The notes: generated by a model not told the origin, from the letters alone. DNA of 13,990 bases from Candidatus Micrarchaeota archaeon (GCA_043805855.1 JAZDHP010000056.1:1-13990), one strand, 5' to 3'; positions 17-13,990 are shown, counted from the first letter of the stretch. Numbers and translations: made by a program.

Positions 17-595
17 ATGGCACAAGATGACACTGAAATTGAAATCAAGCTAGAAGTTGACGAAAATACACTTGCAAAGCTGCGCAAAACACTGGAAGTA
101 AATGGAAAGTTTGAAAAAACCGCAACGCAAGTAGATGAATACTTTACCCCAGCTCACAAAAACTTTATGGACTACGATTTCCCATACGAATGGCTCAGCA
201 TCCGCAAACGCAGCGGGAAAACTATTCTCAATTACAAGCACTTTTACCCCGAGAACAAAAACCCATTCACACATTGCGACGAGTACGACACGTTTACTGA
301 CAATGGAGAACAGCTAAAGAAAACACTCGTGGCGTTGAATTTCCGCAGTTTAACAATAGTGGAGAAGAAACGCGACACTTACATTTACCGCGGTTTTGAA
401 ATCGCTATAGATAGCGTGAAAAACCTCGGGAATTTCGTAGAGATAGAAGCGCTTGACAATTCAAAAGGCGTTACTGAAACGCGGCTAGCGCTTTTTGCAG
501 TTGCAAAAGAACTAGGACTGGATATTACAAAAACTCAAATCCGCGGATACCCTTACTTACTAATGGAAAAACAAGGTTTAATCAAAAAAAGCTAA
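17..595 (+). CDS. cyaB: CYTH-domain protein / class IV adenylate cyclase family
   Basis: N-terminal ExExK motif (EIEIKL), QVDEYF, LSIRKR, KKRDTY, IAIDSVKNLGNFVEIEA and C-terminal GYPYLL, all typical of CYTH proteins. Its stop overlaps the glyS stop by 4 bp. Confidence 0.88.
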   Translation: MAQDDTEIEIKLEVDENTLAKLRKTLEVNGKFEKTATQVDEYFTPAHKNFMDYDFPYEWLSIRKRSGKTILNYKHFYPENKNPFTHCDEYDTFTDNGEQLKKTLVALNFRSLTIVEKKRDTYIYRGFEIAIDSVKNLGNFVEIEALDNSKGVTETRLALFAVAKELGLDITKTQIRGYPYLLMEKQGLIKKS

Positions 596-2133
596 ACGCT
601 AGCTTTACACATTTCAATGCACTTCTGTGCGATTTTGGAAATTTTCACCCGCTCTTGCTCACCGCTGTCCCTAACGCGCAGCGTAACGTCGTCTTTCTCT
701 AGAGAATCATAGTCAATTGTAATGCAAAACGGCGTGCCTATCTCGTCTTGACGCGCGTAACGCTTTCCTATACTTCCACTTTCATCGTATTCAACCGCAA
801 GTCCAGTTGCTTTTAGCTTTTCAAAAACCTCGCGTGCCTTTTCAGCTAAGCCGTCTTTTTTCATCAACGGAAACACTGCAACTTTCACCGGCGCGACAGT
901 TGTAGAAAAGCGCAGCACGTTTTTCACTTCGCCCTTCTCTTCCTTCTGGTAAAACGCGTCGACTAAAACAGTAAATAACAAACGGCCAATTCCAATTGAC
1001 GGCTCGATAACAAACGGCACTAGCCTTTGCTTTGTTGCCTCGTCGAAAACAGTAATTTCTTTTCCACTATGCTTCGCGTGTTGCGTTAAGTCAAAATTAC
1101 CCCGATTTGCAATTCCTTGCAATTCCTTCCAGCCCCACGGATAATTATACTCAATGTCCCAAGTTTCGCTAGAATAGTGACTTAACTCAGTTTTCACGTG
1201 TTGGCGAAAGCGCAAGTTTTCCTTCTTTAAACCAATAACATCCGTTAGCCACTTCATGCTTTCAACAAGCCAATAAGCGTGCCACTTGTTGCCGATAACT
1301 TTTTCTTCAAGTAAATCGCCCACTTTTAGTTCTTTATGTTCTTTTTTCTTCTCCTGCATTTCAGCAGTGTAAAAAATAGCTTTGAAATTCTCGTGCTCTT
1401 TTGCAAAATATTCACACTCGTCCATCTTTTCTGGGTTTACAAAATACTCTATTTCCGCTTGCTCGAACTCGCGGCAACGAAACAAAAAATTACGAGGCGC
1501 AATTTCATTTCTAAACGCTTTACCAACCTGCGCTATACCGTAAGGTAGTTGTTTTCTCGAAACGCCGTGAATTGTTTTAAACGCGGTGAAAATTGATTGA
1601 GCTGTTTCAGGCCGCAAGTAACTCTTACTTTCTTCGTTGTTCAGCACGCCGACTTGCGTTGAGAACATTAAATTAAAAATGCGAACTTCAGTTAACTCGC
1701 CTTTGCACTTTGGACAAACGAGTTTGTGCTTCGCAATTAACTCTTCCAATTGTTTCGGCGCAATACCGTCAACGCTTAGCTTAAGCTCATCTTCAATCAA
1801 CTGGTCAGCACGGTAACGCGTTTTGCACTTCTTGCAGTCAACCAGCGGGTCAGTAAACGAATCCAAGTGCCCGCTCGCCTTCCACACAAGCGGATTTGTA
1901 ATAATCGAACCATCAATCCCAACAACATCTTCTCTTTTAGTAACAAAAGTGCTCCACCAAGAGTTAACGATGTTACGCTTTAGTTCAACTCCAACTGGCC
2001 CGAAGTCAAAAAACCCAGCGAACCCACCGTAAACATCCGCAGTTGGAAACACCAAACCACGACGGGCACACAGCGCAACAACGTTTTCAACAACGTTTAA
2101 CTTCTTTTCAACCTTTGAAACATTTTCAACCAT
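592..2133 (-). CDS. glyS: Glycine--tRNA ligase, alpha2 (archaeal/eukaryal) type
   Basis: RRGLVFP..DVYGG..GFFDFGPVG, VWKASGH, two CxxC pairs, YLRPETAQ, class II motif 2 GKAFRNEI..R.REFEQAEIE, motif 3 VIEPSIGIGR, and anticodon-binding domain GSIGKRYARQDEIGTP. Confidence 0.97.
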   Translation of the reverse strand: MVENVSKVEKKLNVVENVVALCARRGLVFPTADVYGGFAGFFDFGPVGVELKRNIVNSWWSTFVTKREDVVGIDGSIITNPLVWKASGHLDSFTDPLVDCKKCKTRYRADQLIEDELKLSVDGIAPKQLEELIAKHKLVCPKCKGELTEVRIFNLMFSTQVGVLNNEESKSYLRPETAQSIFTAFKTIHGVSRKQLPYGIAQVGKAFRNEIAPRNFLFRCREFEQAEIEYFVNPEKMDECEYFAKEHENFKAIFYTAEMQEKKKEHKELKVGDLLEEKVIGNKWHAYWLVESMKWLTDVIGLKKENLRFRQHVKTELSHYSSETWDIEYNYPWGWKELQGIANRGNFDLTQHAKHSGKEITVFDEATKQRLVPFVIEPSIGIGRLLFTVLVDAFYQKEEKGEVKNVLRFSTTVAPVKVAVFPLMKKDGLAEKAREVFEKLKATGLAVEYDESGSIGKRYARQDEIGTPFCITIDYDSLEKDDVTLRVRDSGEQERVKISKIAQKCIEMCKASV

Positions 2134-2166: not shown

Positions 2167-2175
2167 TTTAAAAAA
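2167..2175. promoter_or_regulatory. Putative TATA box in the 63-bp divergent glyS/tRNA-Leu intergenic region
   Basis: TTTAAAAAA starts 30 nt before the tRNA 5' end (2197). On the minus strand it reads TTTTTTAAA, about 34-42 nt before the glyS ATG. Confidence 0.5.
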
Positions 2176-2234
2176 CTCCGCACACCTAATAAAAATGCGG
2201 GAATAGCAAAGCGGTCAAATGCAGTAGACTCAAG

Positions 2235-2356
2235 ATCTGGCTTTTCTTTTTAGAAAAAAGAAAAGACCAAGGGAATCAGCAAAAACCATAGGTTTTTGTC
2301 TGAGTCACAAATCTATGCGATTTGTGCTCAAAGAAAAACATTACTGCAAATGAGCG
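2235..2356 (+). other. tRNA intron 1, canonical position 37/38, 122 nt
   Basis: Central helix CTCA(2229-2232)/TGAG(2351-2354), 3-nt bulges AG|A and CG|A, and the anticodon stem as outer helix. The inner helix is weak. The intron contains three hairpins. Confidence 0.88.
2275..2330 (+). repeat. Double-hairpin element, copy 1 (inside tRNA intron 1)
   Basis: ATCAGC-AAAAACC-ATA-GGTTTTT-GT-CTGAGTCACAAA-TCTATGCGAT-TTGTGCTCA. It shares three invariant blocks and the fold with 5627-5684. Confidence 0.8.
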
Positions 2357-2381
2357 ATCTACTCTCTTAGGAGTTCGAGGG

Positions 2382-2442
2382 AAATCTTTTTTCTTTTATA
2401 AAAAGAAAAAACATTTATGAAAAAAGAAAAGAGGTTCTCGAA
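2382..2442 (+). other. tRNA intron 2, non-canonical position 53/54, 61 nt
   Basis: Perfect central helix CGAG(2376-2379)/CTCG(2437-2440), 5' bulge GG|A, 3' site AA|T, inner helix AATC/GGTT that can extend. Removal places TTCGAA directly after G53. Confidence 0.85.
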
Positions 2443-2448
2443 TTCGAA

Positions 2449-2477
2449 ACGTTTTTTCACAAGAAAAAACGCAGAAC
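2449..2477 (+). other. tRNA intron 3, non-canonical position 59/60, 29 nt
   Basis: Bulge AA|A is followed directly by the 9-bp hairpin CGTTTTTTC-ACAA-GAAAAAACG. Central helix TTCG/CAGA has one C-A mismatch, the 3' bulge is AC|T, and the T stem is the outer helix. Confidence 0.78.
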
Positions 2478-2620
2478 TCCCTCTTCCCGCACTTCTTCTT
2501 TACCTGAGATCCGCACATATTTGTAAACTCTACCTTCGCATGACTGAAGCACTAGTTCTTTTTAAACTCTGCTTTAGTTTGGCAATCTCCTAAGTGTACT
2601 TTGGTGTTTGTCGTGTTTCC

Positions 2621-3300: not shown

Positions 3301-3954
3301 ATGACAAGCACATTATATGACAAACTCTCTGAGCGGACAAAGCGAATAGGCAAACTAGTAGCTAATAGCATGCCGCACTTGCCGTTTGCCTTGTGGGACT
3401 TGGCCGAGTTTATGCACACTTTTCACAATGTACGCCGAAATATTGTTTTCATTGAATGTGAAAAAATAGCCCACGAAGAAGTAAAGCGGCTACTAGCAAG
3501 CGATGAAGAGTTTCGCGACTGCATTGTTTATTCTGGAGAGCGTAAGCCAAAAACAGTTAATGAAGAGTGGGCTAGCGCAAAAAGTGCTGAAATTCGCGAT
3601 ATTATAGTGATAATAAGCCGAAGCGACTTCATGGAAACCAACACAGTAGCTGAAAGCAACCTTCGAGTACCCGGAATTGAACGCCGCTTGGTTGACTTAA
3701 TGGCTTACGCGATGCGGGGATACTTACCACTAACAGTTGAAGAGGCACTTGCTGCTTGGACTTGGTTTATTAAAGAAGGCGAACTACGCATTTCGTTTTT
3801 ACAGCGATACGCAACGCGTCGATACCTCGGATGGTTTCTTAGTGTATTCTTGTTTAAACTGAATAAAAACGGAGACTTAGCTAGTGTTGACCCGCGTTAC
3901 ATTGAAAACGGCAGCAAATATTACGAAGCGTTAAAACGAGTTGAGGAAATTTGA
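3301..3954 (+). CDS. AbiEi-like (DUF6577-like) putative type IV antitoxin
   Basis: LRVPGIERRLVDL resembles the AbiEi C-terminal 'v...ErtlvD' motif. PHLPFALW..EFMH..NIVFIECEK resembles DUF6577 proteins as recalled. It is coupled to the next gene by a TTGA overlap. Confidence 0.65.
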   Translation: MTSTLYDKLSERTKRIGKLVANSMPHLPFALWDLAEFMHTFHNVRRNIVFIECEKIAHEEVKRLLASDEEFRDCIVYSGERKPKTVNEEWASAKSAEIRDIIVIISRSDFMETNTVAESNLRVPGIERRLVDLMAYAMRGYLPLTVEEALAAWTWFIKEGELRISFLQRYATRRYLGWFLSVFLFKLNKNGDLASVDPRYIENGSKYYEALKRVEEI

Positions 3955-5024
3955 ACTTAGAATTTCAAAAAAGACAAAATGAAGTGCTGGAAATACTTTC
4001 GACTCTAGCACAAGAAGCAAGAGTAGCAGGAGAAACGCTTGTTTTTATTGGCGGAAGTGCGGTTCAAACCGCGGTATTGAAACAACCTCTGCGGCTTTCA
4101 ATTGACTTAGACTTATATTATTCGGGCGATGCTGAAGCTTTGCTTTCAAAACTTATTGACTATAAAATAGAAAAACGACCAACCAAACAGCAAGACTTAT
4201 TCTCTTTTTACAAAGTAATTAATGACAAAGTAGAAGTAAAAGTAGACATAGCACGTTTTTCATTAGTTAACGCAGGCAAGCCTTTTGGACTCAAGAAGCT
4301 TACTATTGGAAAAAAGTATTTTGAAGCCAACGTTGCAACACCCGATTACTTGCTTGCCTCAAAACTAGCAGCTTTAGCTATTGGCACTGTTGGCCGTTCA
4401 CCTGAAAAAGAAAGTTTTCGTTTGCTTGATTTTCTTAAAGATGTATTTGACGCAAACTGTTTGATTGACGATTTTAGCGCTGGACCGCAAATGTGGAAAT
4501 TCTTTGAACAAGTGTGCCAAATTCAAAACAACATGCGCAATACCAATTTTACATTTAGCCAGGTTATTGAAAGCGCGATGAACGCCTTGCTAGACTCCGC
4601 ATTAACCACTAATAATACAACTAGCATAGGAAAACAACACTTAAGCGAATTTCAAAACGCATATTTGCTAATTGGCGCAATCAACACTAGAGACTACAAA
4701 ATAATGACGTGCCGTTTAGCTGCTTACTTGTCGCTACTCAATCCCGGAAATGAAGAAAATAGGGAGTTCATTAAACAAATGGAACAAACCATTGCTGAAA
4801 AATACACAGACAAGCATTTCATTGAAGCTTGTGAAGCTAAACTTATAGAAATTGATTTTGAACCAAAACAGCTTCACGAACTTAAAGTAGTTGCGCCACA
4901 AGCATTAGCTTACCTTTTTGCTGCAAAGTATCCGCTTGAATTAGACAAAATAACTGATGAAAAACGCGGCTTGACCGAGGGGCTTAAAAACGGATTAAAA
5001 AGTGGGCTAAAAGATGGGCTATAA
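3951..5024 (+). CDS. AbiEii/AbiGii-family nucleotidyltransferase toxin
   Basis: LVFIGGSA...RLSIDLDL is the pol-beta NTase GG[ST]..RxSxDxD motif, followed by LASKLAAL and KDVFD. TTG start overlaps the upstream stop. Confidence 0.82.
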   Translation: MNLEFQKRQNEVLEILSTLAQEARVAGETLVFIGGSAVQTAVLKQPLRLSIDLDLYYSGDAEALLSKLIDYKIEKRPTKQQDLFSFYKVINDKVEVKVDIARFSLVNAGKPFGLKKLTIGKKYFEANVATPDYLLASKLAALAIGTVGRSPEKESFRLLDFLKDVFDANCLIDDFSAGPQMWKFFEQVCQIQNNMRNTNFTFSQVIESAMNALLDSALTTNNTTSIGKQHLSEFQNAYLLIGAINTRDYKIMTCRLAAYLSLLNPGNEENREFIKQMEQTIAEKYTDKHFIEACEAKLIEIDFEPKQLHELKVVAPQALAYLFAAKYPLELDKITDEKRGLTEGLKNGLKSGLKDGL

Positions 5025-5214: not shown

Positions 5215-6258
5215 ATGGAACTAAGTCTTGGCAAAACGGAAATAGGGGCTTTTCAAGCACTTTGCACAATGCAAGAAGAGTGCACAGTGAACAAATTAGC
5301 TAAAGAGTTGAACCGGTCAAAGAGTTTTGTGTCGCGAGAGGCTAAATCTTTAGCCGACAAGGGGCTAATAGAAATACAGCGCAGTGGAAAGAAAAAAATA
5401 TTAATAATATCTAGAGGTCAACATGCGGTTGCTTTGAGGGAATTAATGGCAAGCAACTCACACGTACCTTTTACCGAAGTACTTAGCGGTTCAACAATAG
5501 CAGTTTTGACAGGGCTGCTTTACCAACCAGCATCGGTTGATACAATAGCTAGGTTAACTTTTACTCCAAAAATTACAGTTCGGCGCAACTTATTGCGATT
5601 GTTGAACTTAGGGGTTATAACGCGACATCAGCGTAAGGCGCGAAGCCTTACGACTGAGTCACAAAGCCAAAGGCATTGTGCTCACAAACACGAATACGCG
5701 GTAGCTTTGCATGGGTTAAGTGAATTTATACAAAAATATGCGGCGTTTGCAGTTCAAACTAGCCGGGCAAATATAACCGGTTCACTATTCGTACGTCGCA
5801 CGAGTGGCTTAATTAGAACAAATGCAAACAATATACCGAATTTCATGGTTCAAACTGGACTAAGTGTTTTTAACAAATATGGCATTGGAATAGTGCAAAC
5901 TGACTTTAAAGATTATTATTTTAACGTGTTAGAAACGCTGGTAAAAAAATTAACGCTTGAAGAAGTTTTAGTTCATGCGCTTGTAAGGACAACGGTTATT
6001 TCTAGCAGTCGGGAAGTTAGCTACGTATTACTTGTAATTGCAAAGAACCGCAAGAAACTTAACTTGAACCGTTTTCTTGAAATAGCAGGGGATTACGGCG
6101 TTGAAAGTAGTGCTAAGCAGTGTATTGAATTTGTTGACGGCGTTTTATCTGGAAAAGAGATTCCAAAGCCGCTTGTGGACTTTGGCATGAGAGCAGAGGG
6201 GCTTGTTTTTCTGGATCAAAACGAGTTTATGGAGTTGTTAAAGCAATATGACGTCTGA
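5215..6258 (+). CDS. Tandem winged-HTH (MarR/ArsR-like) protein, putative antitoxin/regulator
   Basis: wHTH1 is TVNKLAKELNRSKSFVSREAKSLADKGLIEIQRSGKKK. wHTH2 is SVDTIARL...TVRRNLLRLLNLGVIT. The gene overlaps the downstream NTase gene by 11 bp. Confidence 0.78.
   Translation: MELSLGKTEIGAFQALCTMQEECTVNKLAKELNRSKSFVSREAKSLADKGLIEIQRSGKKKILIISRGQHAVALRELMASNSHVPFTEVLSGSTIAVLTGLLYQPASVDTIARLTFTPKITVRRNLLRLLNLGVITRHQRKARSLTTESQSQRHCAHKHEYAVALHGLSEFIQKYAAFAVQTSRANITGSLFVRRTSGLIRTNANNIPNFMVQTGLSVFNKYGIGIVQTDFKDYYFNVLETLVKKLTLEEVLVHALVRTTVISSSREVSYVLLVIAKNRKKLNLNRFLEIAGDYGVESSAKQCIEFVDGVLSGKEIPKPLVDFGMRAEGLVFLDQNEFMELLKQYDV
5627..5684 (+). repeat. Double-hairpin element, copy 2 (in-frame within CDS)
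   Basis: ATCAGC-GTAAGGC-GCGAA-GCCTTAC-GA-CTGAGTCACAAA-GCCAAAGGCA-TTGTGCTCA. The stretch 5628-5684 is 57 nt, or 19 codons. Confidence 0.8.
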
Positions 6259-6874
6259 AGTTAAAATGTATTCAAACCAAGATATTGACCTGGTGTTACG
6301 AAAAGCAAGCGCGTACTTGAACAAGCAGGTTGAAGCGTTTTTAATTGGCGGCTGCGCGATGACGTTTAGAAACTTAAAGCCAGCTACAAAAGACGCGGAT
6401 TTACTGCTAGAAGATGAGCTAAGCGAACAACGGCTGTTTCAAGCGTTGCGACAAGCTGGTTTAGAAGAACTTTTTCCAGGCTCTTACCAGCAAGATGTAA
6501 AAGCTAAGGATATTTTGATTGCAGAGAATGGCTTGCAGTTTGACTTATTTGCCAAAATAGTAATGGACGGCCTAAATTTATCAAAAGGCATGAAAAGGCG
6601 AGCTGAAAAACACGCAAAGTATGGTAATTTGAAAGTGTTCATTGCTTCTAAAGAAGATATTTTCTTGTTCAAAGCAATTACCAACCGGCCTTACCCGAGA
6701 GACTTTGAAGACATGATCACTTTGCAACAAAGCGGGTTAAAATGGCCTGAAGTAATTAGCGAGTACGAAGCGCAAATCAAAGGCAAACAAATAGAACAAA
6801 ACTTAAAGAAAAAACTCACAGACTTAAAACAAACAGGCTACGTAAACCCACTAATGAAAAAACTGAACATTTAA
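6248..6874 (+). CDS. Nucleotidyltransferase, DUF6036/AbiEii-like
   Basis: FLIGGCAM...KPATKDADL NTase motif, QFDLF, and EDIFLFKAITNR..RDFED. Confidence 0.78.
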   Translation: MTSEVKMYSNQDIDLVLRKASAYLNKQVEAFLIGGCAMTFRNLKPATKDADLLLEDELSEQRLFQALRQAGLEELFPGSYQQDVKAKDILIAENGLQFDLFAKIVMDGLNLSKGMKRRAEKHAKYGNLKVFIASKEDIFLFKAITNRPYPRDFEDMITLQQSGLKWPEVISEYEAQIKGKQIEQNLKKKLTDLKQTGYVNPLMKKLNI

Positions 6875-6962: not shown

Positions 6963-7640
6963 TTAATTTTCTTCTTTTCTAATAATTCGTAAAAGCATTT
7001 TTATTAAGTGTACAATTCCTGTTAGCTCCTTTACATTTCTAGGTGCATAACTACGTTCAGATGTACGAATAAGAAACGCACTACCGCCGTGTTTTAAAAC
7101 AACTTCAGCTGCCTCCGCGTCGCTGTCATCGTCTCCAAAAAAGTAAACCTCACCCTTAACGCTTTTTAATAATTTTTCAACCGCGCATTTTTTATCATTG
7201 AGTTCAACCGGTAGAATTTCAAACGCTTTCCTGCCAACGAAAACTTTGGCATTTATGGTTTTAGCTAGCTTTTCAACCAACGCTCGGAACGCATTTACTT
7301 TTACGCCACGCGCGTTACGGTAATGCACAACTGCGCCTATTGACGTTTTTTCAATTTCAATTCCCTTTTGCCATTTGAAATTACCAGCAGTTTTCCAAAT
7401 TAGTTTAACCTGCGCTGCTTTTACTCCCACAACGTTTCCTCGGCCAGGCAAGAGCATGACAAAATGCGGCAGTTGTACACGTAAGAATTTTTTCGGTCTA
7501 CCGCTTAAAACAATTACTTTCACCCCTGCAGCGCGTAATTTTTCTAAAACTCTTAGTGTTTTCGTGGCTATTTTTACTTTTTTTGGATCACGCCGTATCG
7601 CAGCCAAGGTACCGTCAAAATCAGCTATTACCGTTTTCAT
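6963..7640 (-). CDS. otsB: Trehalose-6-phosphate phosphatase (HAD IIB)
   Basis: DFDGTL, VLSGR, IEKT..AVVHYR, GRKAFEILP..DK and FGDDDSD motifs. Located directly downstream of otsA. Confidence 0.88.
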   Translation of the reverse strand: MKTVIADFDGTLAAIRRDPKKVKIATKTLRVLEKLRAAGVKVIVLSGRPKKFLRVQLPHFVMLLPGRGNVVGVKAAQVKLIWKTAGNFKWQKGIEIEKTSIGAVVHYRNARGVKVNAFRALVEKLAKTINAKVFVGRKAFEILPVELNDKKCAVEKLLKSVKGEVYFFGDDDSDAEAAEVVLKHGGSAFLIRTSERSYAPRNVKELTGIVHLIKMLLRIIRKEEN

Positions 7641-7651
7641 TTGCTATTCAC

Positions 7652-9091
7652 TTATTGAATTACAAGAGTTTTGATGAAGTTGTCCGCCCAGTTGAAAACC
7701 GTGTTTTGCGCTACTGTTTTTTTCATTTTGTTCATGCGTTGCTTTTTTTCTACTTCTGGCATTTCAAGCGCCTGTTCAATACCTTCGGCTATATTTTCAA
7801 TTAGAAATGGATTTACTTGCACCGCTTGTTCTAATTCCTCGCTAGCACCTGCAAATTGACTTAAAACAAGCATGCCGTTTCCGTCGTTACTTGCAATGAA
7901 CTCTTTAGCAACTAGGTTCATTCCATCGTGAAGCGACGTTACAAGACAAGTATCCGCAGCGCGATATAGAGCAATTATTTCTTTTAGCGGGACAAAATCA
8001 TTTATTAGAATTACTGGTTTCCAGTCTCCAATTGAATATTTCCAGTTAACCGCATCAGTAGCTGCTAACGTGTCTTCAAGTGCTTTTTTATACTCTGGCA
8101 AATTTGTGCGAGTAGGCGCAGCGATTTGCACAAGAGTAATTTTATTAACATAGCCTGGTTTACTAGTGAACAAATAGTCCAGCGCTTTAATTTTTTCACT
8201 TATCCCCTTTGTATAATCCATTCTATCTGCCGCTACGAGCAGTTTACGATCAAGTGCTTGGTAGCGCTTTCTTATTTTTCTCACATCGTCGTCGCTAACA
8301 CTGCGCACTTGTTGTGAAACGCCTTCATAGTCAATTCCAATTGGCAGCGTTTTCACAATACATTTACTATTTTCTTTTACAATTACTTCTCTTTCATTTA
8401 CTTTGCAATCAACTAGCTTTTGAGCTGTGTAAAGGAAGTTTTTCGTGTATTCGTTTGTATGAAAACCAATTAAATCGTTTTGTAGTAGACTTTCCAGCAG
8501 TTCTTTTTTCCACGGAAATATTTTAAACGCTTCAAAGCCAGGCCAAGGTATGTGCCAAAAGAACCCCGTTTTTACAGTTGGTTTTAATTTTTTCAAATAA
8601 GCAGCACATAAACTTAACTGATAGTCATTTATCCAAACAATTGTATTGTCGGTTATTTCCTGCGCTAGGCTCTCAGCCATTTTCTTATTCATTATCTTGT
8701 ACTGTTCCCACGCGTCTTCTTGAAAATGAGGCCGCACGTGGACAACATGAGACAACGGCCACAGCATAGAGTTAGACGCTAGCGCCAAGCCGCTTTCCTC
8801 TTCTTTTTTACTAAGCCAAACGCGTTTCAAAAGGTATTTATTTTCGCCGGGCGGAACGTTTACTTTATTTTTTGAATCAACAACTTCTTTATCCGCAGTG
8901 CCAAGGCCAAGTGCAACCCAAGTTCCACCGTATTTTTTCAAGAGCGAATCAAAAGCAGTTGGAACTCCGCCGGCAGTTCCCCGGCAGTGTATTTCACCGC
9001 CATGATAATAGTGAGCATAAGGTTCGCTTGTCGATGCAAGTAGAATTTTATTGTCCTTTAAAATCTCGTCAATTGTTTTTTCATTTGCCAT
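7652..9091 (-). CDS. otsA: Trehalose-6-phosphate synthase (GT20)
   Basis: AGGV, LWPLSH, WINDYQL, FFWHIPWP, DLIGFHT, DRMDYTKGI, SLHDGMNLVAKEF and LSQFAGA motifs. Confidence 0.95.
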   Translation of the reverse strand: MANEKTIDEILKDNKILLASTSEPYAHYYHGGEIHCRGTAGGVPTAFDSLLKKYGGTWVALGLGTADKEVVDSKNKVNVPPGENKYLLKRVWLSKKEEESGLALASNSMLWPLSHVVHVRPHFQEDAWEQYKIMNKKMAESLAQEITDNTIVWINDYQLSLCAAYLKKLKPTVKTGFFWHIPWPGFEAFKIFPWKKELLESLLQNDLIGFHTNEYTKNFLYTAQKLVDCKVNEREVIVKENSKCIVKTLPIGIDYEGVSQQVRSVSDDDVRKIRKRYQALDRKLLVAADRMDYTKGISEKIKALDYLFTSKPGYVNKITLVQIAAPTRTNLPEYKKALEDTLAATDAVNWKYSIGDWKPVILINDFVPLKEIIALYRAADTCLVTSLHDGMNLVAKEFIASNDGNGMLVLSQFAGASEELEQAVQVNPFLIENIAEGIEQALEMPEVEKKQRMNKMKKTVAQNTVFNWADNFIKTLVIQ

Positions 9092-9093
9092 TT

Positions 9094-10152
9094 TTATTTT
9101 CTCGAGGACTTTTTGTCAATAAAGTGTACTGTGCGTTGTGGGAACGGAATGTTAATACCTGCTTTTTTATAAGCTGTGTGAAGCGCTTTTACAAATTCAT
9201 GGGTAACTAAATACTGGTCAGTGAATTCCTTTACCCGCAAAATTATGGAAAAGTGTATGCCATTATCTCCAAAAGTATTGTAACGTATAAATGGGTCGAA
9301 ATTAGGCACTGCCCCTTTTGTTTTCTTCTGAATTAAACGCGCGGTTTCGATTGTTATTTTTTCAACTTTTTCTAAATCACTATCGTAGGAAACACTACAG
9401 GGAATTACAATAGACATATCCATTGTTGGCGCATAGTAATTAACAATCATAGCTTGCGCCATTTTGGAATTTGGAACAATTATCAAGTTGTTTGACAAAG
9501 TACGTATTTGCGTACTACGCCAGCCTATTGAAACCGCGTAGCCTTTTTGTCCATTTTCTAGTTCAATATAGTCGCCGACTTTTATCGGTCGGTCAACTGT
9601 CAAGTATACTCCCGCAAAGAAGTTAGAAAGCGTATCTTGAAAAGCAAGGGCAATTGCAAGGCCCCCAATTCCCAAAGCGGCGATTATTGGCGTTATTTCA
9701 ATACCCAAAGTACGCAAGATCATCGTTGCAGTTAGTACAATTATTATAACTTGGCCAATTCTGTGAGCGGTTGAAATAACTTCTTCCATTTTGTGCTTGC
9801 TTTTAGCGGCAACTTCTTCATTATACCATGCAACCATTGCATCTAGAAGCTTGGACAAAGTATAAGCAACTAGCAAAATTATAGCTATTTCAAAAATTGT
9901 TGACTTTATTGCAAGGCTCGTCAAACTAGTGTATTCAATCCCAATATGGAGCCCGATTATTATTAATGCAAAGTGAAGTGGATTTTCAATAGCATCTACA
10001 ATTTTGTCATCCAAAATAGTTTTGGTTTTGGAGGTTATTTTCTTCGCGGAAATTATTATTAAATGGTAAATAATCTTCGAAGCTATTAACGAAATCGCTA
10101 TTGTTGCAAATAGAATTACTATATCATCAAACGTAAACGGAATTGAAATCAT
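9094..10152 (-). CDS. mscS: Small-conductance mechanosensitive channel
   Basis: N-terminal TM helices, ALGIGGLAIALAFQDTLSNFFAG, PIKVGDYI, IGWRSTQIRT, VPNS and GINIPFPQR. Confidence 0.95.
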   Translation of the reverse strand: MISIPFTFDDIVILFATIAISLIASKIIYHLIIISAKKITSKTKTILDDKIVDAIENPLHFALIIIGLHIGIEYTSLTSLAIKSTIFEIAIILLVAYTLSKLLDAMVAWYNEEVAAKSKHKMEEVISTAHRIGQVIIIVLTATMILRTLGIEITPIIAALGIGGLAIALAFQDTLSNFFAGVYLTVDRPIKVGDYIELENGQKGYAVSIGWRSTQIRTLSNNLIIVPNSKMAQAMIVNYYAPTMDMSIVIPCSVSYDSDLEKVEKITIETARLIQKKTKGAVPNFDPFIRYNTFGDNGIHFSIILRVKEFTDQYLVTHEFVKALHTAYKKAGINIPFPQRTVHFIDKKSSRK

Positions 10153-10182
10153 TTTAGAAAACGTATATACTTAGTTTGTTTG

Positions 10183-10190
10183 TTAATAAA
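10183..10190 (-). promoter_or_regulatory. TATA box of mscS-otsA-otsB
   Basis: Minus-strand TTTATTAA lies 31-38 nt upstream of the mscS ATG. Confidence 0.45.
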
Positions 10191-10200
10191 GCCTTACACG

Positions 10201-10233
10201 TTCCACGATTGTGGATGTGCTTTTCCACGATTG
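10201..10233. repeat. 11-bp direct repeat TTCCACGATTG x2 in the divergent promoter
   Basis: Copies at 10201-10211 and 10223-10233 (22-bp period). The first is part of the palindrome TCCAC-GATT-GTGGA. Confidence 0.6.
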
Positions 10234-10280
10234 ACGAACCTAGTTGGTTAAATGCTAAGGCACCTTAATGAAATGCACTT

Positions 10281-11651
10281 ATGTCAAAACTTCACCATTA
10301 CGCTGAAATTGTAGGCGAAGAAAAAATTGAAGAAATTGAAAACCTCGGCTCTATTTTAAGCGAAAAATCAATGGCACACGTCAATGCTACTTTTTACGGC
10401 GGAGGAGTTGCAGAGATGCTTAACACCTATATCCCCCTGTTAAACGAAGCTGGTTTAAAAACCGAATGGCGTTTACTTAAGGGTAGCCGGGAGTTTTTTA
10501 ACGTCACGAAAAAAATGCACAACGCACTGCAGAGCGACAAAGTAAGTTTTTCAAAACAAGAACTTGAGTGCTATGAATCTACACTTGAAATGAACTCCTT
10601 AATTTCAAACTTAAATTGGTATGACTGTGTTGTTATTGATGACCCGCAACCGTGCGGATTGATTAACTTATATTCTCGCGAATCCCCCTCACTATGGAAG
10701 CCGCTTCCGGAGTTTTTACGCTTACCCATCCTGCAAAAAAAACAACCATGGGTTTGGCGAGTTCACATTGACTTATCTAACCCCAACCCTGCGCTTTGGC
10801 ATTACTTGAAAAAGTTCATAAAAAATTACGATGCAGTTGTAGTTTCGCACTTAAGCTATGCTACTGATATTTCTCGCCCAATTTTTGTGATGCCACCCGC
10901 AATTGACCCGCTAGCTGACAAAAACCGCTACCTCTCTGAAACCCAGGTTAACAAAATTCTTGAAAAACATGGAATTGACAGCAAGAGTGACGTTCCGCTA
11001 GTTACGCAAGTTTCTCGTTTTGACCCATGGAAAGATCCACTAGGAGTTATACGCGCGTTTAGAAAAGTACGCAAGTCACAAAAGTGCCAGTTGGTGTTAA
11101 TTGGAAGTATGGCGGCTGATGACCCCGAAGGTGGCGAAGTCTTCAACCGAATTTACCGCGCCGCTCAGCAAATGAAAGACGTTACTTTGATAACCGCACA
11201 AGATGACTTGCTGGTAAATGCATTGCAGCGCAAATCCGCCGTTGTAGTGCAAAAATCCATTAGAGAGGGATTTGGGCTAACTGTAAGCGAAGCCCTATGG
11301 AAAGGCACTCCTGTTGTCGGAGGAAACGTGGGCGGCATACCCTTGCAAATTAAAGACGGAGTTAACGGCTTTTTAGTTTCCAGCGATGCCGAATGCGCCG
11401 ATAGAATTGAATACTTGTTGAAAAACCCGAAAAAAGCAAGGGAAATGGGCGCAAATGGACGGGAAAACATTAGAGAAAATTTTTTGATAACGCGATTAGT
11501 TAAAGATGAATTGAACCTCTGTCGCGCAGTTACTGGACTTGCAGGAACTTCAAGTTTAATGAACGCGCCGCAGGACATTTTTAGAAGACTAACTCACGTG
11601 AAAAAGTTATTTCCGTTCAAAAACATTGCAAAGTTCATAAACGACGTTTAA
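10281..11651 (+). CDS. treT: Trehalose glycosyltransferring synthase TreT-like (GT4)
   Basis: HVNATFYGGGVAEML, FFNVTKKMHNALQ, DPQP, WVWRVHIDLS, PAIDPL..KN, QVSRFDPWKDPLGVI and QKSIREGFGLTVSEALWKG. Confidence 0.9.
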   Translation: MSKLHHYAEIVGEEKIEEIENLGSILSEKSMAHVNATFYGGGVAEMLNTYIPLLNEAGLKTEWRLLKGSREFFNVTKKMHNALQSDKVSFSKQELECYESTLEMNSLISNLNWYDCVVIDDPQPCGLINLYSRESPSLWKPLPEFLRLPILQKKQPWVWRVHIDLSNPNPALWHYLKKFIKNYDAVVVSHLSYATDISRPIFVMPPAIDPLADKNRYLSETQVNKILEKHGIDSKSDVPLVTQVSRFDPWKDPLGVIRAFRKVRKSQKCQLVLIGSMAADDPEGGEVFNRIYRAAQQMKDVTLITAQDDLLVNALQRKSAVVVQKSIREGFGLTVSEALWKGTPVVGGNVGGIPLQIKDGVNGFLVSSDAECADRIEYLLKNPKKAREMGANGRENIRENFLITRLVKDELNLCRAVTGLAGTSSLMNAPQDIFRRLTHVKKLFPFKNIAKFINDV

Positions 11652-11719
11652 CAAAGATAAAGCTCTGATTAACGCCGTCGAAAGCAATTAATTCTATGGC
11701 GAGCTAGTAGTTGAAACAC

Positions 11720-13054
11720 ATGATTAAAAAAACAATGCAGAGCGTATCTCCATTTGTCGGTATACTTGTGCTGGGCATTTTTCTACTACTGATAATAACA
11801 ATTATCCAAACTAGCGTTTTTGGAGTTGTCGAAGACGAAAAACACATTTACTTTGAAATAGTATTTTTACTACTACTTGCAATTGCTGGAGAATTAGCAG
11901 TTGTATATACCAAACAACCTAGCGTCATGATTTTAATGATCCTAGGTATTTTCATGAGTTCTAGTTTTCTAAACTTATCTTGGGAGTTTTTACATTCATT
12001 GCGGTTGCCTTTTACAATTCCAGACACTGCGCCTAATGTCCTAAGGCTTGAAAACATTATGCACGTTTTTGCACAACTTGGGGCAATTATTCTTTTGTTC
12101 AAAGTCGGCATGCATAATAAGTTAGAAAAGATATTTGCATTTGACAATCTTATCGTTGCATTAGCGGGGGTTATTTTGCCTTTTGCAGTTGGTTTCTTGT
12201 ACGCTAGCTACGCGGGCGGTAGTTTTGCATATTCAATGTTCATGGCAGCAGCGTTAACTGCAACTTCAGTTGGGGTGACGGTAGCTGTTTTAAAAGAATT
12301 TAAAGTAATGAACGCGCGATTTGCTGAAATAATTATAGGCGCGGCGGTTTTAGATGATATTTTGGGTCTACTTGTTTTATCGTTTGTAATAAACATAACC
12401 GGCGTTAGCGGCGAGGCATCAATTGTTTCTCTAGCGTTAACTCTCGTCACTGCAGTTGTTTTCTTGTTAGGCAGCGTCATGGCTGGAAAGTACTTTTTGA
12501 AGTATCTAGACAAAAAAGAATTGAACCCCAAGCGCTTTTTGTTAGTTTTAGCACTTGTATTTTTCTACGCGTACATGGCCGAGTTCATTAAACTATCTGC
12601 AATAGTCGGTGCGTTTATGGCGGGTATTATTTTAAACCAAAGCAAGCACCGTATTGAAATTGAAGAAAAGACCTACGGGTTAGAAATGCTATTCTTGCCA
12701 ATATTTTTCATTTCTCTTGGAACGTTTATAGACATAAATGCACTGTCGGTGTTTTTTGTTCCAATTTTAATTATAACCATTTTAGCAATTCTTACAAAAG
12801 TAATTGGTTGTGGTGTTGCTGGATTAATTGCGAAGTTAAAACCACTGGAAGCAGCAGCTGTTGGAATTGGAATGATGCCTCGCGGCGAAGTAGCTTTGAT
12901 AATAGCTGCAATTGGCTTGACTACTAAAATACTCACGCCCGCAGAGTATTCTGTAATCGCGTCAATGGCTTTACTAACTACGCTTATTGCGCCGCCGATT
13001 TTACAAACTTTAATTACAAAGATAAAAACAGCTGAACAACATGGTACTAATTGA
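11720..13054 (+). CDS. Cation:proton antiporter (CPA2/NapA-like)
   Basis: Many TM segments, LGAIILLFKVG, ALTATSVGVT, GAAVLDDILGL, PIFFISLG and GMMPRGEVAL. ATG 11720 is preferred; TTG 11711 is possible. Confidence 0.9.
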   Translation: MIKKTMQSVSPFVGILVLGIFLLLIITIIQTSVFGVVEDEKHIYFEIVFLLLLAIAGELAVVYTKQPSVMILMILGIFMSSSFLNLSWEFLHSLRLPFTIPDTAPNVLRLENIMHVFAQLGAIILLFKVGMHNKLEKIFAFDNLIVALAGVILPFAVGFLYASYAGGSFAYSMFMAAALTATSVGVTVAVLKEFKVMNARFAEIIIGAAVLDDILGLLVLSFVINITGVSGEASIVSLALTLVTAVVFLLGSVMAGKYFLKYLDKKELNPKRFLLVLALVFFYAYMAEFIKLSAIVGAFMAGIILNQSKHRIEIEEKTYGLEMLFLPIFFISLGTFIDINALSVFFVPILIITILAILTKVIGCGVAGLIAKLKPLEAAAVGIGMMPRGEVALIIAAIGLTTKILTPAEYSVIASMALLTTLIAPPILQTLITKIKTAEQHGTN

Positions 13055-13990
13055 AGGAATAATACTGCTAGTTTCGCTAACTATACTTGCAAAATCATCA
13101 AGCGTCGTAGTTGAAAACGCGGTTAAACTTTCGAAATTCTTTGGAATAAGTCAGCTTGCAGTTGGGTTTCTTTTGCTTTCGGTTTCAACTTCATTACCTG
13201 AATTGTCAGTTTCCGTTATTTCATCAACTGCGGGCAAGGGTGCAATTGCTGCAGGCAATGTTTTTGGTTCAAACATCGCAAATATATTGTTAATTCTAGG
13301 CGCAGGCGCCTTTCTGTATGGATTAAAAATAAGAAAAGAGACGCTCAAAGATATTTCACTAATACTCGTTTTAACAACGGTAATTTCGCTTTACATTATT
13401 TTTAACAGTTCAATAAGCGGCCAAGCGCTTGGCGCGCTCGAAGGAATTATTTTATTACTATTATTCCTCGGTTATGCCTTTTACGTTCTTAGGAAGCAGC
13501 CAATTAATGAAAATGGCATAAACAACGTCACTAAAAAAGAAGCGCTTTATGCTTTTTTGTATTTTTCAGCTTCAATTGCCATTGTTTTAATAAGCTCTAG
13601 CTTCGTCGTGGATTCCGCGGTGAAACTTGCAAAGATATTCAACATTGCAGAAAGTTTTATCGGCGCAACTATAATCGCAATTGGCACTTCGCTGCCTGAA
13701 TTGTCAATTGACCTCCAGGCAATTAGGAAAAAGCACTTTGGCCTGGCGCTTGGAGACGCTATTGGAAGCAACATGGTGAACTTAACTCTTGTTTTGGGCA
13801 CGGCGGCAATTATAAGTCCAATTCACATTCTCTTGCCGGTATTCATAGCAGCGTTGCTATTTGCAGTGCTTGCAAACATCGTTTTACTTTACTTCGCATC
13901 AGTTAACAAACAACTAGATAAATTCGGCGGAGCGTTATTTTTGTTAATATACGCGCTTTACATAATTGTAATCTTTTATCTTCAAATTCA
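13041..13990 (+). CDS. Calcium/sodium (CaCA family) antiporter, 3' truncated by the window end; absent from the ORF track
   Basis: Manual translation from ATG 13041 gives MVLIEGIILL...STSLPELSVS...GNVFGSNIANI (alpha-1) and later AIGTSLPELSI...GDAIGSNMVNL (alpha-2). It overlaps the upstream gene by 14 bp. Confidence 0.9.
   Translation, partial: MVLIEGIILLVSLTILAKSSSVVVENAVKLSKFFGISQLAVGFLLLSVSTSLPELSVSVISSTAGKGAIAAGNVFGSNIANILLILGAGAFLYGLKIRKETLKDISLILVLTTVISLYIIFNSSISGQALGALEGIILLLLFLGYAFYVLRKQPINENGINNVTKKEALYAFLYFSASIAIVLISSSFVVDSAVKLAKIFNIAESFIGATIIAIGTSLPELSIDLQAIRKKHFGLALGDAIGSNMVNLTLVLGTAAIISPIHILLPVFIAALLFAVLANIVLLYFASVNKQLDKFGGALFLLIYALYIIVIFYLQI

Follow-up and report, generated by a model that had tools for sequence, protein, structure and literature searches.

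We analyzed a stretch of 13,990 nucleotides (nt) from a Candidatus Micrarchaeota archaeon (GCA_043805855.1, JAZDHP010000056.1:1-13990), the whole of which is called the window below. The window contains a tRNA-Leu(CAA) gene whose four exons lie in order on the forward strand within 295 nt and are interrupted by three introns. The introns make up 212 of the 295 nt, and the exons, when joined by their coordinates in a script, give a molecule of 83 nt. The elements of the locus are as follows.

2168-2176, forward strand: A/T-rich box TTTAAAAAA, read from the sequence and lying 21-29 nt before the 5' end of the tRNA
2197-2234, forward strand: exon 1 (38 nt); 5' strand of the acceptor stem, D arm, 5' strand of the anticodon stem, and anticodon loop to position 37, including the anticodon CAA
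2235-2356, forward strand: intron 1 (122 nt); canonical position 37/38, with the anticodon stem as outer helix
2357-2381, forward strand: exon 2 (25 nt); position 38, 3' strand of the anticodon stem, long variable arm, and 5' strand of the T stem (GAGGG)
2382-2442, forward strand: intron 2 (61 nt); position 53/54, relaxed HBh' form of the splice motif
2443-2448, forward strand: exon 3 (6 nt); micro-exon TTCGAA, T-loop positions 54-59
2449-2477, forward strand: intron 3 (29 nt); position 59/60
2478-2491, forward strand: exon 4 (14 nt); T-loop position 60, 3' strand of the T stem, 3' strand of the acceptor stem, and discriminator A

These coordinates and the proportion of intervening sequence are exactly those given in a first-pass annotation of the same DNA. 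With four exons in order on one strand within 295 nt, a split or permuted tRNA gene is ruled out. The CCA end is not encoded at the 3' end of exon 4, and no open reading frame (ORF) of at least 60 amino acids overlaps 2197-2491 on either strand. Archaeal promoter elements usually lie at a spacing that fits the position of the A/T-rich box, which by that spacing alone is a candidate TATA-like element. The borders of intron 1 are ambiguous in the sequence, with GATCT at both (2234-2238 and 2356-2360), and boundaries shifted by -1 to +3 give an equal profile score and the same tRNA call. Because the sequence alone is insufficient here, we placed the cut at 37/38 on the basis of the bulge geometry described below. 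In a homolog from Micrarchaeota (L028, see below), ATCT is likewise found at the start of the intron and at the start of exon 2.

ARAGORN reported no tRNAs in the unspliced window, and none in 2150-2540 when introns in the anticodon loop were allowed; Rfam gave no match in the unspliced window at the gathering score. Relaxed Rfam searches, using an E-value threshold on 2100-2600 and on the whole window, gave nothing usable. At the relaxed threshold, the tRNA model matched only part of the gene, 2204-2261 (in exon 1 and the beginning of intron 1), with 15.3 bits against a gathering score of 29. A self-splicing group I or group II intron was rejected, as no Rfam match to a catalytic intron reached its gathering score (group-II-D1D4-1, 15.4 bits against 35, E = 2.5). 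The expectation from the first pass that standard annotation would miss the gene thus held for ARAGORN and Rfam, but was overstated as a general claim: the archaeal mode of tRNAscan-SE 2.0 includes an iterative search for genes with two or three non-canonical introns (PMC8450103).

The joined exons were scored with ARAGORN and with a profile hidden Markov model (HMM). ARAGORN called tRNA-Leu(caa) over the whole length (positions 1-83). In this call the acceptor stem has 7 base pairs (bp), the D stem 3 bp and the T stem 5 bp, the T loop has 7 nt, and there are an anticodon stem and a long variable arm. None of the stems in the 83-nt product contains a mismatch. The minimum-energy fold of the product (-28.9 kcal/mol) has the acceptor, anticodon, variable and T arms, and 2 of 500 mononucleotide shuffles folded as well. 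The profile HMM was built from 79 unique mature tRNA-Leu sequences, which came from the 104 of 116 listed archaeal loci (see below) that had an ARAGORN call at the start of the search pattern. Using nhmmer, the product scored 73.1 bits over model positions 1-83 (E-value 1e-23). The score rose stepwise as introns were removed, from 32.4 bits for the unspliced gene, in which exon 1 only was aligned, to 49.4 bits without intron 1, 58.1 bits without introns 1 and 2, and 73.1 bits without all three. When three segments of these lengths were excised at random from the 295 nt, the best of 1000 trials reached 62.9 bits. The 5' half of the profile score is circular, because the homologous loci were fetched with an exon 1 pattern; the 3' half is independent of that pattern. 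Against a model of the 3' half, the 3' half of the product scored 43.6 bits, compared with a range of 6.6-49.4 bits and a median of 39.0 bits for the training sequences. All of this bears out the 83-nt tRNA-Leu(CAA) cloverleaf that had been drawn at first pass.

A further indication came from comparing the product, position by position, with the 36 homologs of equal length (the 43 of other lengths were left out). Acceptor pairs 6-77 and 7-76 are both A-T in the window, and they are G-C in 34 and 25 of the 36 homologs, respectively. These compensatory changes join exon 1 with exon 4, which are 283 nt apart, and are what is expected under selection on the spliced molecule.

We then scored the exon-intron junctions as splice motifs. 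In this scoring, the 4 bases 5' of each 3-nt bulge pair to form a central helix, the cut falls after the second base of the bulge, and an outer and an inner helix flank the arrangement. Each of the six cuts follows the second base at a 3-nt bulge position. Intron 1 has a fully paired central helix (2229-2232 with 2351-2354, CTCA/TGAG, 4/4), an outer helix of 6 bp and an inner helix of 1 bp. Intron 2 also has a fully paired central helix (2376-2379 with 2437-2440, CGAG/CTCG, 4/4) and an inner helix of at least 12 bp, but an outer helix of 0 bp; there is no helix beyond its 3' bulge. Such a relaxed motif has been named HBh' (PMC3239211). In intron 3, the central helix (2443-2446 with 2472-2475, TTCG/CAGA) is paired at 3/4 positions, with one G.U pair and an internal C.A mismatch, and the inner helix is 9 bp (2450-2458 with 2463-2471). 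The outer helix of intron 3 is the 5-bp T stem itself, which can form only after intron 2 has been removed; there is none while intron 2 is present. The first-pass annotation had described three introns with bulges at their junctions and had inferred a relaxed-specificity endonuclease. We recovered all three introns, at positions 37/38, 53/54 and 59/60, and the relaxed motifs are the HBh' motif of intron 2 and the mismatched motif of intron 3. Its statement that every junction lies beside a 4-bp helix applies to introns 1 and 2; for intron 3 the helix is paired at only three of four positions.

This geometry is rare by chance. In 400000 random cut pairs in the window, a 4/4 central helix with an outer helix of at least 5 bp was found 85 times, a 4/4 central helix with an inner helix of at least 9 bp was found once, and a central helix of at least 3/4 with an outer helix of at least 5 bp and an inner helix of at least 9 bp was found 0 times. 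A separate feature of the T-arm region is a mimic of the 5' T-stem strand in the 3' part of intron 2, which pairs with the end of intron 3 (2429-2441 with 2473-2485). The resulting bulge-helix-bulge-like arrangement has a 4/4 central helix (TTCT/AGAA), a 6-bp outer helix and cuts at 2440/2441 and 2478/2479 (offsets of -8 and +1 from those proposed); the T loop would be lost if these cuts were used. The arrangement could be a decoy or a coincidence.

The precursor is highly structured; its unconstrained minimum-energy fold reached -96.8 kcal/mol, with a z-score of -7.95, and none of 200 shuffles folded as low. The acceptor stem is retained in this fold, as are the hairpins within the introns and, for introns 2 and 3, the inner helices. 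When the acceptor stem, the anticodon stem and the central helix of intron 1 were enforced, the 5' bulge of intron 2 formed by itself; this bulge and the inner helix of intron 2 were present in both the unconstrained and the partly constrained folds.

Relatives of the gene were collected in one scan of genome contigs with a degenerate exon 1 pattern, which returned at least 116 loci from many archaeal phyla. Counts from the 116 listed loci are lower bounds, not a census, and the genome of the window is not among them. ARAGORN gave a call at the start of the pattern for 104 of the 116, of which 77 are intronless and 27 contain a canonical intron. The 12 uncalled loci comprise four that end at the end of a contig (L047, L058, L077, L103) and eight with an intron after TTCGAA, at position 59/60. 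Six of these eight (L007, L011, L016, L065, L072, L086) also have an intron at 37/38; four of the six are titled Aenigmatarchaeota and L065 is titled 'archaeon'. The other two (L017, L114) are titled Undinarchaeota. The 59/60 introns of all eight use the same TTCG strand in the central helix, which is paired at 4/4 positions in seven and at 3/4 in L011, and in all eight the T stem is the outer helix and the spliced T loop is TTCGAAT. L028, the only listed locus titled Micrarchaeota, has TTCGAAT as a contiguous T loop, which supports the junction between exons 3 and 4. None of the 116 listed loci adjoins a gene for glycyl-tRNA synthetase (GlyRS), which is the neighbor of the gene in the window.

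From these data, we think it likely that the locus is a functional Micrarchaeota tRNA-Leu(CAA) gene with three endonuclease-dependent introns at positions 37/38, 53/54 and 59/60. A 295-nt precursor would be transcribed from the A/T box approximately 25 nt upstream, and its acceptor stem and intron hairpins would fold. The archaeal splicing endonuclease would then cut after the second base of each 3-nt bulge, with intron 1 leaving via a near-standard motif on the anticodon stem and intron 2 via the relaxed HBh' motif. An RtcB-type ligase would presumably join exon 2 to the 6-nt exon 3, after which the T stem could form and supply the outer helix of intron 3. Because the T stem is the outer helix of intron 3 and forms only after exons 2 and 3 are joined, the removal of intron 2 is predicted to precede that of intron 3. 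This predicted order matches the description of closely spaced archaeal introns, one of which sometimes must leave before the motif of the next can form (PMC8450103). The 83-nt product would then receive its CCA and presumably take part in translation. Relaxed motifs are reported to be cleaved only by broad-specificity endonucleases (PMC3239211, PMC5829648), and the epsilon2 endonuclease of Candidatus Micrarchaeum has broad specificity and cleaves a relaxed 59/60 motif in vitro (PMC3239211). Since neither intron 2 nor intron 3 conforms to the strict motif, an enzyme of broad specificity, such as epsilon2, would be expected. Other endonucleases able to cut relaxed motifs are the (alpha-beta)2 type and loop-bearing alpha4 enzymes.

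Several observations weigh against a functional gene. These include the C.A mismatch in the central helix of intron 3 and the missing outer helix of intron 2. The unconstrained precursor fold lacks the intron 1 motif, with 2220-2226 paired to 2342-2348 instead, and enforcing the motifs costs energy (-91.2 kcal/mol with intron 1, -91.1 with introns 1 and 2, and -84.4 with all three). In the partly constrained fold described above, the bases at the 3' splice site of intron 2 pair with exon 2 and form no bulge. Introns 2 and 3 each contain a T6 run (2387-2392 and 2452-2457), and in archaea oligo-T tracts serve to terminate transcription. The homolog L028 has no T-arm intron, and its one intron is canonical. 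There is no 53/54 intron among the 116 listed loci, and relatives beyond the listing may carry one. No splicing endonuclease gene was found among the 14 window ORFs scanned against Pfam, and a second, intact tRNA-Leu(CAA) gene is possible elsewhere in the genome, since the view here is that of the window. Many of these points would suit a dying gene, in which a normal tRNA-Leu(CAA), perhaps with the canonical intron only, was invaded by A/T-rich hairpins in the T arm and is no longer matured, with UUG read by another tRNA-Leu: the weakened motifs of introns 2 and 3, the T6 runs, the precursor fold, the homolog L028 and the rest of the genome lying outside the window can all be cited for it. 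We nevertheless regard decay as unlikely. The exons are free of defects, all stems pair, the product scores 73.1 bits, and its 3' half scores above the median of real genes. Both T-arm insertions are placed exactly so that a T loop of 7 nt returns when cleavage follows the second base of the bulge, and they combine central helices of 4/4 and 3/4 with inner helices of 12 and 9 bp, a combination seen 0 times or once in the 400000 random cut pairs. Both T-arm positions are used in a published Micrarchaeum tRNA (PMC3239211), and the 3/4 central helix recurs in L011. The T6 runs do not appear to be an absolute stop here, because eight sense-strand runs of T6 or longer lie inside window ORFs (in 12375 nt).

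It is also conceivable, but very improbable, that the gene is real and has other boundaries or is processed differently, either with intron 3 cut 1-3 bases further left, giving a T loop of TTCGACT or TTCAACT, or with the arrangement at 2440/2441 and 2478/2479 competing as a decoy. With intron 3 shifted, the profile score is still 64.8-71.5 bits and ARAGORN still calls tRNA-Leu, and the competing arrangement does have a 4/4 central helix and 6 bp of outer helix. The proposed cuts, however, give the highest profile score (73.1 bits), and the T loop they produce is the one that is contiguous in L028 and results from splicing in all eight listed homologs with a 59/60 intron. Other cut pairs up to 8 nt away from the proposed ones that reach a 4/4 central helix have at most 2 bp of flanking helix, compared with 14 bp for the proposed pair. 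As for the competing arrangement, it would remove the T loop, and one match among 289 offset pairs is not unexpected given the frequency of 85 in 400000 for a 4/4 central helix with at least 5 bp of outer helix. A coincidental resemblance, in which A/T-rich intergenic DNA looks like a tRNA only after hand-picked deletions, has next to no probability and is refuted as far as computation goes. The three deletions were freely chosen, and neither ARAGORN nor Rfam calls a tRNA before splicing; yet the E-value of the product is 1e-23 and 0 of the 1000 random triple excisions reached its score. The motif geometry provides an independent check, and the two compensatory A-T pairs in the acceptor stem and the 59/60 introns of eight listed relatives likewise speak against coincidence. 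A functional gene with three introns is therefore the reading that we prefer.

The introns are rich in hairpins. There are six perfect hairpins (stem of at least 8 bp, loop of 3-6 nt) in the whole 13.99-kb window, five of them within the 212 intron bases:

2241-2265, 2280-2298 and 2306-2326: perfect hairpins in intron 1
2387-2411: perfect hairpin in intron 2
2450-2471: perfect hairpin in intron 3
5632-5652: perfect hairpin outside the introns

Three of the intron hairpins consist of a T-run arm and an A-run arm and are 78-84% identical to each other over 19-27 nt. In the introns of other listed DPANN tRNA-Leu(CAA) genes, perfect hairpins occur at 3.69 per kb, compared with 0.18 per kb, an enrichment of approximately 20-fold. 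In one of these genes (L085, Nanoarchaeota), the hairpin begins at gene position 45, as in intron 1 of the window; the alignment of the two introns is convincing over the hairpin alone. It is possible, and at present speculative, that all three introns were built from one hairpin module (T-run arm, short loop, A-run arm) that spreads between endonuclease-competent sites in DPANN tRNA genes or is kept for a function of the excised structured RNAs. The similarity rests on low-complexity A/T runs and is insufficient to argue for common descent. Intron gain by transposition has been proposed so far only for Thermoproteales (cited in PMC4033280). If the module is real, then together with the 6-nt micro-exon and the predicted obligatory order of removal it would represent intron gain by transposition in DPANN.

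Some introns of the listed relatives have features of their own. Two loci titled Aenigmatarchaeota (L007, L016) carry similar elements in both introns and in the 3' flank, each a T-run/A-run hairpin followed by AAAAAGGAGG...CCTTCCA, and the 3' flank of L016 repeats most of its intron 1, including a C/D-box-like part. These elements look like duplicated or mobile intron sequence and count in favor of the hairpin module considered above. In a different set of loci (L030, L039, L054, L062, L070, L082, L084, L105 and others), the canonical intron begins with a sequence like TTGAGTGATGAG, in which a C-box-like TGATGA lies beside bases complementary to those of the anticodon loop and CTGA or TGA follows at a distance. 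This composition suggests that these introns encode a C/D-box guide RNA, as is known for tRNA-Trp introns. Intron 1 of the window was considered as a source of such an RNA and rejected; it has no TGATGA box, unlike several of the homologous introns.

The protein-coding genes of the window indicate its likely host. On one side, the tRNA gene is divergent from a gene for GlyRS; on the other side there are short ORFs only, none of them assigned. The GlyRS has matches with up to 78% identity, and up to 62% for those with organism names. The named matches are mostly Candidatus Micrarchaeota, Micrarchaeia and Norongarragalinales (an order of Micrarchaeia), with single entries from Aenigmarchaeota and Marsarchaeota. 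The best match of the trehalose-6-phosphate synthase OtsA, at 85% identity, is from a Candidatus Micrarchaeota archaeon. The G+C content of the window is 37-43%. Based on these two proteins and on the names given by depositors, we take the host to be a Micrarchaeota-like DPANN archaeon, in line with the ARMAN-type host suggested at first pass. The other features of the window are:

592-2133, reverse strand: GlyRS, with Pfam domains HGTP_anticodon and tRNA-synt_2b
3301-3954: DUF6577 protein, overlapping an AbiEii-like nucleotidyltransferase toxin (3951-5024)
5215-6258: TrmB/MarR-type helix-turn-helix protein with an HVO_2833 C-terminal domain, overlapping the next ORF (6248-6874)
6248-6874: DUF6036 nucleotidyltransferase, a weak match (20.3 bits, below the cut-off of 23.6)
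6963-13988: osmoadaptation-like cluster, with a trehalose-phosphatase, trehalose-6-phosphate synthase, MscS-type channel, TreT-like glycosyltransferase, Na+/H+ exchanger and Na+/Ca2+ exchanger
7652-9091: trehalose-6-phosphate synthase OtsA

The gene pair at 3301-5024 looks like a type IV toxin-antitoxin or abortive-infection module. The named relatives of OtsA are a few from Micrarchaeota and Diapherotrites, followed by bacterial proteins at 42-45% identity (Omnitrophica, Dehalococcoidia), and a transfer of this gene from bacteria is possible. In the ORF for the TreT-like protein, there is an Rfam match at 10532-10598 to snoU2-30, a C/D-box snoRNA (27.8 bits against a gathering score of 60, E = 0.076), which is probably due to chance.

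Predicted tRNA repertoires of DPANN genomes often have gaps, which Kaneta et al. 2018 (PMC5829648) ascribe to disrupted tRNA genes that escape detection. The locus provides a concrete case, a complete tRNA-Leu(CAA) that is unseen by ARAGORN and Rfam. It also offers a substrate for probing the limits of epsilon2-type endonucleases, in which an HBh' motif and a mismatched central helix occur together with an exon of 6 nt and introns that are expected to leave in order. Kaneta et al. report the epsilon2 type from Micrarchaeum and Mancarchaeum only. Our understanding of the mechanism of archaeal tRNA splicing is unchanged by this gene, whose layout is rare but of a kind that has already been described. 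Archaeal tRNA genes are known to have up to three introns (PMC3239211, PMC8450103, PMC4033280). Three-intron tRNAs are named for Thermoproteales, and multiple-intron tRNAs are listed for ARMAN-1 and ARMAN-2 (PMC4033280). We found no description of a three-intron tRNA in Micrarchaeota or DPANN in the literature covered, which did not include the ARMAN list in Supplementary Table S2 of PMC3239211; the window extends this layout to a Micrarchaeota-like genome.

Among known genes with a similar organization, the nuclear tRNA genes of Cyanidioschyzon merolae have up to three ectopic introns, including some in the T arm (PMC3728597, PMC9602550). They belong to a eukaryote with a different endonuclease and are unrelated to the archaeal context of the window. 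The three-intron genes of Thermoproteales (Sugahara et al. 2007/2008, as cited in PMC4033280, PMC3239211 and PMC8450103) resemble the gene described here in having three bulge-helix-bulge introns, some of them relaxed, and a nested removal that depends on order. They belong to TACK archaea with an (alpha-beta)2 endonuclease, whereas the window is assigned to DPANN. The eight listed DPANN genes with a 59/60 intron are alike in the tRNA, the site, the TTCG strand and the use of the T stem as outer helix. They differ in having no 53/54 intron, and their 59/60 introns are 23-170 nt long, compared with 29 nt in the window.

All three intron positions of the window are documented in archaea, 37/38 as the canonical one and 53/54 and 59/60 in ARMAN-2 (Candidatus Micrarchaeum acidiphilum), whose pre-tRNA-Pro(GGG) has introns at both of these T-arm positions (Fujishima et al. 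2011, PMC3239211, Figure 1C). The 53/54 and 59/60 pair in a Micrarchaeum tRNA and the maximum of three introns are thus already published. The ARMAN-2 gene shares with the window the two positions, the 6-nt exon between them and, as judged from the neighboring proteins, the lineage at the level of phylum, and both precursors would be expected to be substrates of a broad-specificity endonuclease. The gene in the window differs in being a class II tRNA, Leu with the anticodon CAA, and in combining the T-arm pair known from ARMAN-2 with an additional, canonical intron. For the ARMAN-2 pair, a strict hBHBh' motif is described (PMC3239211), whereas in the window intron 2 has the HBh' form and intron 3 has a mismatched central helix.

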